Source: Octopus vulgaris | Taxonomy: Eukaryota | Length of the DNA stretch: 64,000 bases | Direction: 5' to 3' | Assembly (NCBI GenBank): GCA_951406725.2 | Contig: OX597835.1 | Location: forward strand, 36,580,001 to 36,644,000 | In this document: positions 7,042 to 54,091 of the stretch, piece by piece | How positions within the stretch are numbered: position 1 is the first letter of the stretch | Layout: the number at the start of each line of letters is the position of its first letter | Notes under the pieces: generated by a model | The model's input: only the letters and a program-made list of their open reading frames with translations | Told to the model about the DNA's origin: nothing | The model's database searches: none | Made by a program: the position numbers and the translations under genes

Positions 7042-7594
7042 TAATATAAGGGATATTAGCCAACCGAATATGGCTAGGGACAGGGCAGGGTGGTGGGGGT
7101 GTCACTGTTGCATTTAGCCCCAGGCGAACATCAACGTCACCAGATAGGCCTGACGCCATCACGGCGTCCTCTATCCTGCAAAGGGAGATCATTCACCAAG
7201 AAGCCGATACCACACACGGACCTAGGTTTCAAGGTGTATTGCCTATTATCAACGTGTGGTAGGCATCGCTTCTCGATGAACGACCAACTGTGCAAGATAT
7301 ATATAAGGATTTGCCTACCACACGTTTGCCTACCACACGTTGATAATAGGCAATACACCTTGAAACCTAGGTCCGTGTGTGGTATCGGCTTCTTGGTGAG
7401 TGATCTCCCTTTGCAGGATAGAGGACGCCGTGATGGCGTCAGGCCTATCTGGTGACGTTGATGTTCGCCTGGGGCTAAATGCAACAGTGACACCCCCACC
7501 ACCCTGCCCTGTCCCTAGCCATATTCGGTTGGCTAATATCCCTTATATTACGGAGCAGTCACTGTCTATATCTCATTTAGAGAATTATTATTGC
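7042..7594 (+). mobile_element. Hairpin-plus-tail element (putative non-autonomous Penelope-like element)
   Basis: 224 bp inverted arms (7042-7265 and 7327-7550; one mismatch seen), unpaired tail 7551-7594, (TA)n on both sides. Confidence 0.75.
7331..7384 (+). ncRNA. Type I hammerhead ribozyme motif, U3-A8 core variant (mirror copy 7208-7261, - strand)
   Basis: taccacacg-TTGATAA-t-agg caataca cct-t-GAAAC-ctag-GTC-cgtgtgtggta: stem I 9 bp with a 2-nt bulge, short stem II, palindromic loop 3, GUC triplet. Confidence 0.7.
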
Positions 7595-8169
7595 TATATA
7601 TATATATATATATATATATATATACGACGGGCTTCTTTCAGTTTCCGTCTACCAAATCCACTCACAAGGCTTTGGTAGACCCGAGGCTATAGTAGAAGAC
7701 ACTTGCCCAAGGTGCCACGCAGTAGGACTGAACCCGGAACCATGTGGTTGGTAAACAAGCTACTTACCACACAGCCACTCCTGCACATATCATTTTTTAA
7801 AATTATTATTTAGGCCATATAGTTATTCTAACGGTTCCTTTGGGCGAATCGCTAAGTTACGGTTACGTAAACACACCAACAACGGTTGTCAAGCGGTGGG
7901 GCGGGGGAACAAACACAAAGGCACACACACACACACACCGTCTACCAAATCCACTCACATGTTTATGGTGAAAAAAAAATGCTGGCCCAAGGAACTTAAC
8001 CCGGTGTCATGTATTTGAAAAACAAACTAATTATTTCACGATGCTTTATCAACTAGGAAGTTCTAAGTTCAAATTCCACCGAAGTCGACTTTGCCTTTCG
8101 TCCTTCGGAATCGACGGAATAAGTACCAGTTGAGCACTGGAGTCAATCTAATCGACATGTATCCCCTTG

Positions 8170-8508
8170 GGATCTTTTCGGTTTGAACGGCAGTTTTTAA
8201 CATAATTTCTAGGTAACTAAAAAATATTAAACTTCGTATACTGGTAGAATGTGTTTATAAAACATCATTTTCTCTTGGCTTTCTTGAGAAAATTCTGTAG
8301 TTTGTAACGGCACATAATGCCAGTGATTGGTTAAAATTGCAGAAATGCAAGAAATTAAAGACGAAATATGTTACAAAGTACAGAATTTTCTCAATAAAGC
8401 CAAAAGAAAAAGATGTTTTATAAACACATTCTACCAGTGTACGAAGTTTAGAATTTTTTAGTTACCTAGAAATTATGTTAAGAACTGCTGTTCAAACCGA
8501 AAAGAACC
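8170..8508. mobile_element. Merlin-like MITE, symmetric variant with about 135 bp inverted arms
   Basis: Ends GGATCTTTTCGGTTTGAACGGCAG / CTGCTGTTCAAACCGAAAAGAACC; 8-bp TSD tccccttg. Confidence 0.75.
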
Positions 8509-8939
8509 TCCCCTTGTTTAGTTGTTTGTTCCCTCTCGAGCCATTTCTGGCTCATTAGGGCCAGTTACCCGATTTCCTTGGTATATAGGTTCCCCACCTG
8601 AACGGGACGCCGGTCCGTCGCAGATGAGCTGCAAGATGCAGGAGGAAAGAGTGAGAGAAAGTTGTGGCGAAAGAGTCAGCAGAAGTTCGCCATTACCTTC
8701 TGCCGGAGCCGTGTGGAGCTTAGGTGTTTTTGCTCATAAACACACACACATCGCCCGGTCTGAGGTTCGAACCCGCGATCCCTCGACCGCTGCTCTAACC
8801 ACTAGGCCATGAGCCTCCTCACCCTTATTTATTTAGAGCATACATATTACATGCTCAACATAAATATTGGTTTTAAAGTTTTGGTACAAGGACAGAAAAT
8901 TCATGGGTGAAAGGGTGAGGGCAAATCGATAACATCGTT

Positions 8940-9433
8940 CCCGAAAAGATGAAAGACAAAGTTGATCTCGGCAGATTTTGAACTCAGAACGTAGCGGCAG
9001 ACGAAATACCTATTTCTTTGCTACCCACAAGGGGCTAAACACAGAGAGGGGACAAACAAGGACGGACAAAGGGATTAAGTTGATTATATCGACCCCAGTG
9101 CGTAACTAACTGGTACTTATTTAATCGACCCTGAAAGGATGAATGGCAAAGTCGACCTCGGCGGAATTTGAACTCAGAACGTAACAGCAGACTAAATACC
9201 TATTTCTTTACTACTCACTAGGGGCTAAACACAGAGAGGACAAACAAGGACAGACAAACGGATTAAGTCGATTATATCGACTCCAGTGCTTAACTGGTAC
9301 CTAATTTATCGACCCCGAAAGGATCAAAGGCTAAGTCAACCTCGGCGGAATTTGAACTCAGAACGTAGAGGCAGACGAAATACCGCTAAGCATTTCGCCC
9401 GGCGTGCTGACGTTTTCTGCCAGCTCGCCGCCT
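8940..9433 (-). mobile_element. SINE family B (OR2-like, Nin/Deu-domain core), head plus three tandem bodies (last one partial)
   Basis: Core gtcgactttgcctttcatcctttcggggtcgataaa; tail-to-internal junctions at 9009/9010 and 9199/9200. Confidence 0.8.
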
Positions 9434-9908
9434 TTGACGAACGAAATGCCGCTAAACATTTTGCACGTGTTTACGTTCTTGATTCCAAATCCTGAAACTT
9501 TGAGAGAGGGATTTAGTCGATTAGATAGACCCCAATGCTCAACAGGTATTTTATCGGCCCCGGCCCCAAAAGGATGAAAGGCAAAGGGGACCTCGGCGGA
9601 ATTTGAACACAGAACATTAAGAGGGATGATACTGCTAAAAATTTGTCCGACCTATTAACAATTCTGCCAGTGAGCAGAAATTAAGTTAATGTTACAAGGG
9701 AGGTAACTGTTGCTTATATTCCAGTACTATCTCAGCAGGGCGACGACCTGTCAAATTCGTTAGGACGTCGGGCTAAATACTTAGCAGTATTTCGTTGGTT
9801 TTCATGTTCTGATGTCAAATTCCGCCGAGATCGAGACTTGGCTTTTCATCCTTTGAAGGCACATGGCTCAGTGGTTAGAGCGTCGGGTTCGATTCTCGGA
9901 CTGGGCTG

Positions 9909-52197: not shown

Positions 52198-52531
52198 CTG
52201 TATGGGTAGCAGGGCTTAAATACTCTGCTCTTATGTGTGAGACAGCTATACACTTTAAGATCATATATTTGAATTGCCAACTGCCAATGGCTTGAAGTTT
52301 ATCAACCCTTTAGCATTTAAACTGGTCACATGGGGCCAAAATATTTCGTTTTATATTGAAACTGTGTGTATGGGTAGCAGGGCTTAAATACTCTACCCTT
52401 ATGTGTGAGACAGCTATACACTTTAAGATCATATATTTGAATTGCCAACTGCCAATGGCTTGAAGTTTATCAACTCTTTAGCATTTAAACTGGTCACATG
52501 GGGCCAAAATATTTCGTTTTATATTGAAACT
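52198..52531. repeat. Tandem duplication of about 170 bp
   Basis: tgtatgggtagcagggcttaaatactct...ttttatattgaaact occurs twice. Confidence 0.85.
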
Positions 52532-52699
52532 TGCTAGATCTGACATTTTGCAACTATCTGACATCTATCCTACGATATTGTTTTACAAATAAACAATTAC
52601 ATAATCAAAATCTTGAAGTTATGAGATAAAGCATGATTAATTCAAAACAATGTGAATAAATAAGCATTACATTTGACATGGGAATCTGGATGCTAAAAG

Positions 52700-53640
52700 A
52701 TAGAAATTGTGTACCTCTGGTGACAGCAGTATGTAGTTCATTTTTCCTGTTAACAGACACTGCAGTTGGTATAGTATGTGTAGTCTCTTGCAGTGACAGG
52801 GTTAGCAATTGCGTGTTCCAGATAAGCAAGGAAGGGCCATATCAATGATACTCCATTTGATGTTGGATAAGTCATTCTGATGGTCATGGAGCCTCTAGAC
52901 GAAGTGAGATCAAGAGGTTGAGTTTTCCTTGTTCCTGTACTTGAAGGAGTGCATGTGCTGTTTATATCTTTCCTTAAAATCATTAGCTGTCATGCCTGTG
53001 TAATGTTTTGTGATGCTATCTTATGGTACAAGAGTGTATCTATAGACTACACCTTTTGAGAGGCAAGTTATTCCCTGTGGGCAGCTGGTAGAAATTCAAA
53101 AGTTACAGGTTGCGGTGTAGATTGGAAGCTGTGTAGGTGTTTGTGGCATGTGATGAGTAAAGTGATATTGTCTAAACAGGAATAACTGACTTTAACATTG
53201 TGGGGACTGAAGGATTTATAATACCTATGGGTTCTTGGTAAATGTTTTTTTAATTAGTGTTAAGAAGCTCCTGGTTATGTTAGTTTCTAGGTTGTATGGA
53301 GGATCGAACCAGTTTATTTTTGTTTCCAACTCTCTTCAGGTTCAGGGTTTGGGTGATGTACTTCATATATATATATATATATCAGCAAATCCACTCCTTG
53401 CTAATGTCTCATTATAGTAGGGTGCAGTCAAGTTGGAGATTTTTCTGTTTGCTGATAGATTAGAGATTCTCTTCTTATGCTTGTAAATAGGTTTCTAATT
53501 ACAGTTGTAGGGTGGTTGGAGTTTCCATGGATATAAACAATTTTCTCATTGAGTTTTATATAAGAGTAGTACTTGCATGTCCACAAGTTTAGACTGGTAA
53601 GAGTGATAAGGGAGTGTGTAAACTAAGAGAGACCATGATT
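52700..53640 (-). pseudogene. Decayed Penelope-like element ORF (RT thumb, linker and GIY-YIG endonuclease)
   Basis: YIHGNSNHP, RISNLS..PYYNETLARSGF, NVKVSYSCLDNI, CP.G.TCLSKGVVYR...HYTGMTANDFKERYKQH..SF, IKWSII, NRKNEL; many stops and frameshifts. Confidence 0.8.
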
Positions 53641-53715
53641 GCTACATGTTTGTTATTGACAGGGAGTTAAAGAGAAAACAACATGAACAGAATTATGGGA
53701 AAGCAGTAAAGATTT

Positions 53716-54091
53716 ATATTTCATTTTGGGATTTGGTTTGCAAGATCCATTACGTGAGTTCGTGTGTTGAAGCATATTCTGTTGTGTCTGGGGAGAGTCA
53801 TTTTCTTTCTGTGCCTTATAATTTAACACACACATCGGTAAAATTTCCACTTTTTTTTCTTATTTTTATTTTCCTAAAATTTTCATTGCGTCTTGCAACC
53901 TTTTCAATAGTTTTGACTCTGTCCTTTATTTACACTGCTGTTATTTACTTGCAAACTATTGAAAAGGTTGCAAGACGCAACGAAAATTTTTGGAAAATAA
54001 AAATAAGAAAAAAAAGTGGAAATTTTACCGGTGAGTGTGTTATATAGTATAAGGCACAAAAAGAAAATGACTCTCCCCAGACACAACACAA
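53716..54091 (-). mobile_element. Hairpin-plus-tail element with 9-bp TSD
   Basis: About 135 bp arms (53780-53913 and 53953-54088), tail 53716-53779, flanking direct repeat taaagattt. Confidence 0.72.
53956..53993 (+). ncRNA. Minimal hammerhead-like motif, U3-A8 variant (mirror copy 53874-53910, - strand)
   Basis: cta-TTGAAAA-g-gttgc aagac gcaac-GAAA-attt...; perfect 5-bp stem II; stem I is only 3 bp (cta/tag in the mirror arm). Confidence 0.45.

Follow-up and report, generated by a model that had tools for sequence, protein, structure and literature searches.

Switched 3-8 core pairs suggest selection on a self-cutting hammerhead fold in related octopus retroelement families

A 64,000-nt stretch of the Octopus vulgaris genome (assembly GCA_951406725.2, contig OX597835.1, positions 36,580,001 to 36,644,000) carries six candidate hammerhead ribozyme motifs in which the bases at core positions 3 and 8 are C-G, U-A or G-C, the last a seldom reported state. 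These six sites are probably the hammerhead motifs of multi-copy retroelement families, and across related families the 3-8 pair appears to have switched among the three states, likely through selection on master elements that keeps the active self-cleaving fold. From a comparison of genomic sequences, the pattern suggests that a self-cutting fold is under selection in related octopus retroelement families. The whole stretch is referred to here as the window, and positions are those of the window; searches by contig covered the 2.8-Gb genome in about 30 large contigs.

The motifs had been listed in a first-pass annotation made from the sequence alone. All six core heptamers were recovered as described, at 7340, 13449, 42470, 47459 and 53959 on the plus strand and at 49008 on the minus strand. 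The window was scanned for type I hammerheads with a descriptor that requires stem I, stem II, GAAA, a palindromic helix III and a UH triplet and leaves positions 3 and 8 free. With stem I set to at least 3 bp it matched seven times, compared with 0.11 matches in local dinucleotide shuffles (n = 100). The strict descriptor was passed by four of the six sites (7340, 13449, 47459 and 49008) and by three mirror copies that the annotation had not listed, with cores at 7252, 13036 and 53907, all on the minus strand. The annotation also described every site as closed by all of its stems, which is accurate for the same four sites but not for the other two. At 42470, stem II contains a C·A mismatch (GTCGC/GCAAC; the family has GTCGC/GCGAC), and at 53959 stem I is broken (CTA/TTG, where the family stem is just 3 bp long, CTA/TAG). 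At gathering thresholds Rfam reports no hammerhead in the window, and at E <= 10 none was present among the 150 of 335 matches listed, those listed being microsatellite-driven.

Each site is a member of a multi-copy repeat family, with 467-2,014 first-look candidates per family. The families are called A (7340), B (42470), C (53959), D (13449), E (47459) and F (49008). Copies of families B to F mostly share sequence up to about 100-250 nt beyond the core, and their 5' ends vary. Family B copies, sampled by their 3' half only, had G3-C8 in 29 of 31 cases and G·G in the other two; four further copies had no locatable core. U3-A8 was present in all 27 copies of family C, whose loci were sampled by an upstream anchor. 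Families D, E and F were sampled by best hits and had C3-G8 in 15 of 15 copies (one more was without a core), 18 of 21 copies (the remaining three without a core) and 22 of 26 copies, respectively. In a script survey of multi-locus families, all ten had a paired majority at positions 3 and 8 (6 C-G, 3 U-A and 1 G-C); family A is absent from this count since the script missed a stem II with a closing mismatch.

Sister Penelope-like elements with three core pairs

Families B (G3-C8), C (U3-A8) and G (C3-G8, outside the window) are sister Penelope-like elements (PLEs). In long copies of family B, an upstream open reading frame (ORF) ends in a GIY-YIG domain with a Pfam match above the cut-off, and GTGAACA is found about 1 kb downstream of the endonuclease in 28 of the 30 best copies. 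One family B locus has an open frame of 1,024 aa in which reverse transcriptase (RT) motifs were recognised by eye; Pfam returned no RT family for the B protein and nothing for the G protein, and a PDB sequence search with the B protein gave no matches. An inverted copy lies at the 5' side of four of six long family B loci. Among 30 family C loci collected by the upstream anchor, 11 match the B protein, 20 carry the motif (all U3...A8) and 7 have both ORF and motif. Family G is a very young element and the most recently amplified of the sisters, with 150 of 150 scored matches identical and open frames of up to 1,312 aa. C3...G8 is present in 20 of 20 of its copies (family G loci L345-L366; example motif at L366:6797-6846, minus strand).

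At the protein level, B and G are 55% identical and G and C are 49-65% identical, with about 44-56% over most aligned stretches. The motif occupies a common site in B, C and G, approximately 0.5-1 kb past the GIY-YIG endonuclease and 92, 104 and 135 nt ahead of the homologous ORF start. The translations display a CX2-5CxxC linker and two endonuclease cysteines; the linker also occurs in Nematis, and the Neptune clade is no more than a candidate placement for B, C and G. The DNA homology of B and C on the 3' side of the motif has a score that was reached by 20 of 2,000 shuffles and is weak alone; the sister relation is settled by the protein link. The annotation had placed the 3-8 covariation in unrelated families. 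The covariation stands, with family majorities that match the pairs it noted, but B and C are not unrelated. Since the G-C and U-A families are sister PLEs, the argument from covariation becomes stronger.

Compensatory change is also seen in the helices. Stem II reads GTCGC/GCGAC, GTTGC/GCAAC and GTCAC/GTGAC in B, C and G, and stem I reads TCA/TGA, CTA/TAG and CCA/TGG. The helix III palindrome is AATATT in family B, which has a 7-bp stem I, and AATT in family C, which has a 3-bp stem I. Among 12 representatives chosen as intact-looking, the 5-bp stem II is 100% paired with both sides changed at two of its five pairs, while U4, G5, A6, GAAA and G10.1-C11.1 are unchanging. These 12 comprise 6 C-G, 5 G-C and 1 U-A, counts that are descriptive of a chosen set only.

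The search was then widened to the shared PLE scaffold with positions 3, 7, 8 and 9 free, which gave 16,304 genomic matches versus 3 for a reversed control. A hand tally of the first 100 matches listed, from one contig, yielded 41 G-C, 31 C-G, 21 U-A and 7 other, making 93 Watson-Crick pairs. In 800 kb of unselected genome, taken at fixed coordinates, a script found ten scaffold matches, all Watson-Crick at 3-8 (4 G-C, 4 U-A and 2 C-G). The general descriptor with a stem I of at least 4 bp matched the same 800 kb 26 times versus 0.8 times in shuffled sequence, and these matches were 17 C-G (7 in one tandem array), 6 U-A, 1 G-C and 2 C·U.

A tree calculated from the 3' flank alone separates the G-C (98/95), C-G (97/95) and U-A (95/80) groups. 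It has 38 rows and is unrooted, with five truncated- or unrelated-looking flanks and locus L374 left out; the direction of change is read by taking C3-G8 as the general state. The G-C side of the tree includes an old, diverged family, H, with the core GTGACCA, and 16 of the 26 rows on this side keep G-C, the other 10 being decayed. Because G-C is dominant in the older family H, the G3-C8 state has persisted through successive masters. A3-U8 was considered as a fourth state and rejected: there were 11 matches genome-wide, and the ten fetched were six decayed family B copies, three decayed family H copies and one family C-like copy.

Beyond this clade, family D is also a young PLE, with 40 of 40 matches identical. 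In one long copy, an RT-like ORF (RVT_1, E 2.7e-4, below the Pfam cut-off) and a GIY-YIG-like ORF, its motif recognised by eye, lie upstream of the hammerhead. For families E and F, no ORF was linked to the motif within 1.5 kb (25 loci each).

Long family B copies (e.g. L279:505-560) also contain a branch-point-like CTAAC, a pyrimidine tract and AG about 20-45 nt ahead of the core, and many short copies start there. The arrangement resembles the intron end beside helix I described for Drosophila virilis Penelope.

A wobble state in a retrozyme family

Family A is composed of non-coding 356-nt tandem units, each with one type I hammerhead motif (seen in L009, L015, L027 and L030) and a strongly self-paired predicted fold. 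Best hits had U3-A8 in 29 of 29 copies, a sampling that hid a U3·G8 subfamily. With a pattern in which positions 3 and 8 were free, U3-A8 was found in 118 of 214 copies; by hand tally, 51 of the first 100 listed copies were non-U-A, all of them U3·G8 and none with C3. The unit of the U·G form is a separate one of 361 nt, and sister-family units measure 361 nt and 353-359 nt. U·G and U-A monomers are 83-88% identical to each other, and each has 76-78% identity to the C-G family. The unselected sample contains a homologous array with C3-G8 and G10.1-C11.1, in which 278 of 364 columns are identical. The simplest path for the retrozyme pair would be stepwise, from C-G through U·G to U-A. Compensatory change is expected to follow such a route, yet this one shows that a wobble family was propagated.

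Retrozymes without long terminal repeats (LTRs) are similarly non-coding tandem units, of about 170-400 nt, with one type I hammerhead each, and the mussel units are 350-390 bp in length (PMC7229834). The axolotl retrozyme motif shares with family A a U·U at the base of helix II. Unlike known retrozymes, family A has U3-A8 and U3·G8 beside a C3-G8 sister, many of its copies are inverted pairs in the manner of PLE insertions, and it is known here from DNA alone. A link between retrozymes and PLEs has been argued by Li et al. (bioRxiv 10.64898/2026.07.22.740005).

Two further multi-locus U3-A8 hammerhead families are located elsewhere in the genome (L252, L208 and L236; L215 and L223). The first of these has a canonical-type loop 2 and no BLAST similarity to family A monomers.

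Precedents and explanations for the covariation

Natural covariation from C3-G8 to U3-A8 was reported by Perreault et al. 2011 (PMC3088659); the available text makes no mention of a natural G3-C8 or of a wobble intermediate, both of which are present in the octopus families. Using a U3-A8 descriptor, the 2014 study of Cervera and De la Pena (PMC4209133) obtained about 1,300 extra matches; the hammerheads it describes include the U3-A8 variant of Schistosoma Cercyon elements. Their Fig. S3 contains the cores UUGAUAA and UUGAAAA, one U3·G8 row, U17 in about 24 of 56 rows (hand count) and no G3-C8 among the 56 rows. The annotation was correct that U3-A8 variants exist and are missed by fixed descriptors, but both points were already published in these two papers.

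The metazoan PLE minimal hammerheads of PMC4209133 resemble octopus families B and C in having a short stem I, an extra nucleotide that separates position 9 from 10.1, and G10.1-C11.1; as in octopus, loop 3 is palindromic or absent and the motifs form opposite-strand pairs 100-700 bp apart. They differ in that the extra nucleotide is G in octopus (H in the published consensus), that three pair states occur in one octopus sister clade and that one sister has A9C. The anole's Poseidon PLE likewise has a hammerhead, PAc, in its pseudo-LTR beside the ORF start (Frangieh et al. 2024, PMC11167929). In PAc, G3-C8 is a laboratory mutant, whereas it is natural in octopus family B, which has at least 6,299 copies (6,299 exact genomic matches to its 3' half). 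G3-C8 is likewise only a constructed variant in the available text of PMC3884650. With respect to their proteins, B, C and G resemble the Neptune/Nematis-type PLEs with a C-terminal endonuclease (EN+; Craig et al. 2021, PMC8557442) in having a single ORF with RT followed by GIY-YIG, a CX2-5CxxC linker and two cysteines between GIY and YIG. Inverted 5'-truncated copies, partial tandems and (TA)n flanks are further PLE likenesses described in that study. Literature searches, with key papers outside their reach, found no natural G3-C8 hammerhead, and octopus PLE hammerheads of this kind were absent from the papers listed. The newest element of the present study, as read from genomic DNA, is a natural G3-C8 core apparently fixed in an animal PLE family that is large, was active recently and has U-A and C-G sisters, along with a wobble intermediate in a retrozyme.

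A more specific proposal can be put forward tentatively: a recently active PLE family with intact ORFs and thousands of copies may use a naturally inverted G3-C8 hammerhead that cleaves, in which case one octopus genome would record C-G, U-A and G-C in sister PLEs and a walk from C-G to U·G to U-A in retrozymes. In tandem transcripts, two motifs would pair via the palindromic helix III, or fold with the help of the element's protein, and a slow cut after N17 would trim the element RNA or release retrozyme monomers. According to crystal structures cited in PMC9901934, the 3-8 pair belongs to the active conformation. A pairwise mutant scan in the same paper found that only the G:C swap rescued activity in this region, with which a review agrees (PMC8495972). 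In the anole PLE hammerhead, C3G or G8C alone abolishes cleavage and the double mutant partly restores it (PMC11167929).

Several observations weigh against selection for self-cleavage. Minimum-energy homodimer folds produced a helix III dimer for families E and F only and not for A, B, C, D or G, although such folding says little about the minimal motifs. Stem I of family C is only 3 bp. In family G, the conserved A9 is replaced by C in 19 of 20 copies and by U in 1 of 20, and loop 3 is an imperfect palindrome; older relatives of this family (L376, L377) keep A9. Among the first 100 scaffold matches listed, 26 of the 31 with C-G are without A9. The base of stem II in family A is U·U at 10.1-11.1, and the U3·G8 subfamily, in tandem arrays, accounts for up to 96 of 214 copies. 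The spread of this subfamily indicates that strict Watson-Crick 3-8 pairing is not required in the retrozyme. Independent switches are also few, about three to five: the PLE clade accounts for two and the retrozyme for one, made stepwise, with perhaps two more in the further U-A families. Minimal PLE hammerheads described earlier are poor cleavers, even when multimeric (PMC4209133), and the anole PLE inserts in vitro without the need of hammerhead cleavage (PMC11167929). The annotation had attributed the covariation to selection on catalysis. The 3-8 pair does mark the active fold, but with A9C in the youngest sister and cleavage unneeded for PLE insertion in vitro, catalysis as the selected property is something we infer. 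A non-complementary consensus at positions 3 and 8, which the annotation regarded as contrary evidence, was not seen in the PLE families and is found in part in the U3·G8 retrozyme subfamily.

Some of these points would be accommodated if the fold were kept but not for cutting. The motif would then be a structural or protein-binding part of the pseudo-LTR, involved in ribonucleoprotein assembly or in the start of translation or reverse transcription, with catalysis relaxed or lost. The A9C change in the most recently amplified sister, the U·G and U·U pairs of the retrozyme and a motif placed 92-135 nt ahead of the ORF start are each in keeping with such a role, as is the anole PLE hammerhead, which needs protein to cleave, is dispensable for in vitro insertion and has no RNA-seq ends at its cut site (PMC11167929). 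This explanation is nonetheless unlikely given that the 3-8 pair is part of the active conformation (PMC9901934), that U4, G5, A6, GAAA and G10.1-C11.1 are invariant in the 12 chosen representatives, and that mussel retrozyme monomers are released by cleavage (PMC7229834).

It is far less probable that the pairing arose by luck, through a handful of neutral substitutions that became fixed in a few masters and were amplified along with them. Thousands of copies do descend from few masters, which reduces the record to roughly three to five independent events. Transitions from C to T and from G to A are frequent, the A3-U8 of decayed copies (11 matches) results from two neutral transitions, and one wobble family exists. 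Neutral change predicts, however, that singly changed, mismatched families should be commoner than doubly changed, paired ones, and ten of ten multi-locus families are paired (family A not included). The move from C-G to G-C takes two transversions, the resulting state persisted from old family H to young family B, and neighbouring core positions are unchanged. A chance resemblance within AT-rich foldback repeats, such as miniature inverted-repeat transposable elements, is scarcely credible for the G-C core at 42470 and the U-A core at 53959 and is largely refuted. The strict descriptor rejects both window copies and Rfam detects no hammerhead, but each site is the 3' remnant of a PLE with RT-like and GIY-YIG ORFs, the motif is placed where the sister element has C3-G8, and the published consensus of minimal hammerheads is matched in the extra nucleotide, G10.1-C11.1, the palindromic helix III and U17. 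Selection on masters to keep the active fold is the preferred explanation.

The window copies and cephalopod hammerheads

Of the six sites, four are within foldback insertions that carry a motif on each arm. The family A insertion (7042..7595, both arms) is made of two partial monomers, 7042-7312 on the minus strand and 7327-7595 on the plus strand, of the 356-nt tandem-repeat, retrozyme-like element. Its plus-strand type I motif (7334..7379) has TTGATAA at 7340 with U3-A8, the U·U at the stem II base, the palindrome CCTAGG and a GUC triplet, and its mirror on the inverted arm (core at 7252) spans 7213..7258 on the minus strand. The family B stub (42305..42647, both arms) includes the pseudo-LTR with the hammerhead and the ORF-start region. 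The minimal motif on its plus strand (42463..42513) has GTGAACA at 42470 with G3-C8, an extra G before stem II, the AATATT palindrome, U17 and the 7-bp stem I, in addition to the C·A in stem II. On the opposite arm, the decayed mirror (42390..42440, minus strand, core at 42433) reads GTGAAAA, a G3·A8 mismatch, and also has a stem II mismatch. The family C stub (53719..54093, both arms) carries the minimal motif with TTGAAAA at 53959 (53956..53992, plus strand), which has U3-A8, the extra G, stem II GTTGC/GCAAC, no loop 3, U17 and the broken stem I; in the mirror (53874..53910, minus strand, core at 53907) the 3-bp stem I is intact. The minus arm of this stub (53801-53724) has an ORF start that resembles the N-terminus of the family G protein (61.5% over 26 aa, E 2.9e-4).

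The three C3-G8 sites are unremarkable. The family D motif (13443..13533, plus strand) is at the 3' end of the element, with CTGATGA at 13449, a long stem II, the palindrome ACAATTGT and GUA, and is mirrored at 12952..13042 on the minus strand (core at 13036). The motif of the older family E (47455..47535, plus strand) has CTGATGA at 47459, a long stem II with A·A at its base, the palindrome ACAGCTGT and GUA. That of the older family F (48933..49012, minus strand) has CTGAAGA at 49008, ACAGCTGT and GUA.

As truncated foldback stubs with motifs on opposite strands, the window's own copies are likely inert, since a tandem dimer could not arise from opposite-strand arms and read-through RNA would fold into a long hairpin.

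Other remnants are present in the window. Another minimal hammerhead, with a U4C change and unlisted by the annotation, lies at 13818-13842 on the minus strand; it belongs to a common family that has intact copies in L274 and L275. A family C stub with the core missing is at 11939-12138, and the 3' half only of a stub from a family D relative is at 55171-55257. On the minus strand at 52745-53152, another PLE has left a broken GIY-YIG endonuclease (E 2e-7 to the family D protein) with a 168-bp tandem duplication after it; the descriptor finds no hammerhead with this remnant. Two more foldback insertions (8170-8508 and 48583-48876, with 139- and 100-nt arms) have no recognisable hammerhead core in the arms inspected. 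Non-LTR retrotransposon RT ORF fragments at 15765-17097 and 31132-31641, both on the minus strand, are unrelated to the hammerheads. An open frame at 34299-34820 (minus strand) has low-complexity Lys/Arg/Ser stretches, and a host exon may sit on the opposite strand. Finally, a 33-bp minisatellite of about 55 copies at 39252-41149 has long open frames on both strands.

The annotation's statement that searches fixed on CUGANGA would miss such variants was borne out. None of the ten scaffold matches in the 800 kb fits this core, nor do Rfam gathering thresholds find any motif in the window. Published cephalopod counts based on Rfam, such as the 235 hammerhead loci of the giant squid (PMC6962438), are probably far too low, because one clade alone has 16,304 motif copies, only 5 of the first 100 listed fit CUGANGA, and Rfam recovers no window motif.

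The question is what role PLE hammerheads have, as they cleave weakly and insertion in vitro did not depend on them. Compensatory changes seen across homologous elements, at a pair belonging to the active fold, give direct evolutionary evidence that this fold is being kept, and the A9C and U·G families show at which points the constraint is looser. Families B, C and G, plus family A and its two sisters, form a matched natural set with which the question can be tested without designed sequences. If the interpretation is true, these octopus elements would provide a natural allelic series with which to ask whether PLE hammerheads are selected for cutting.

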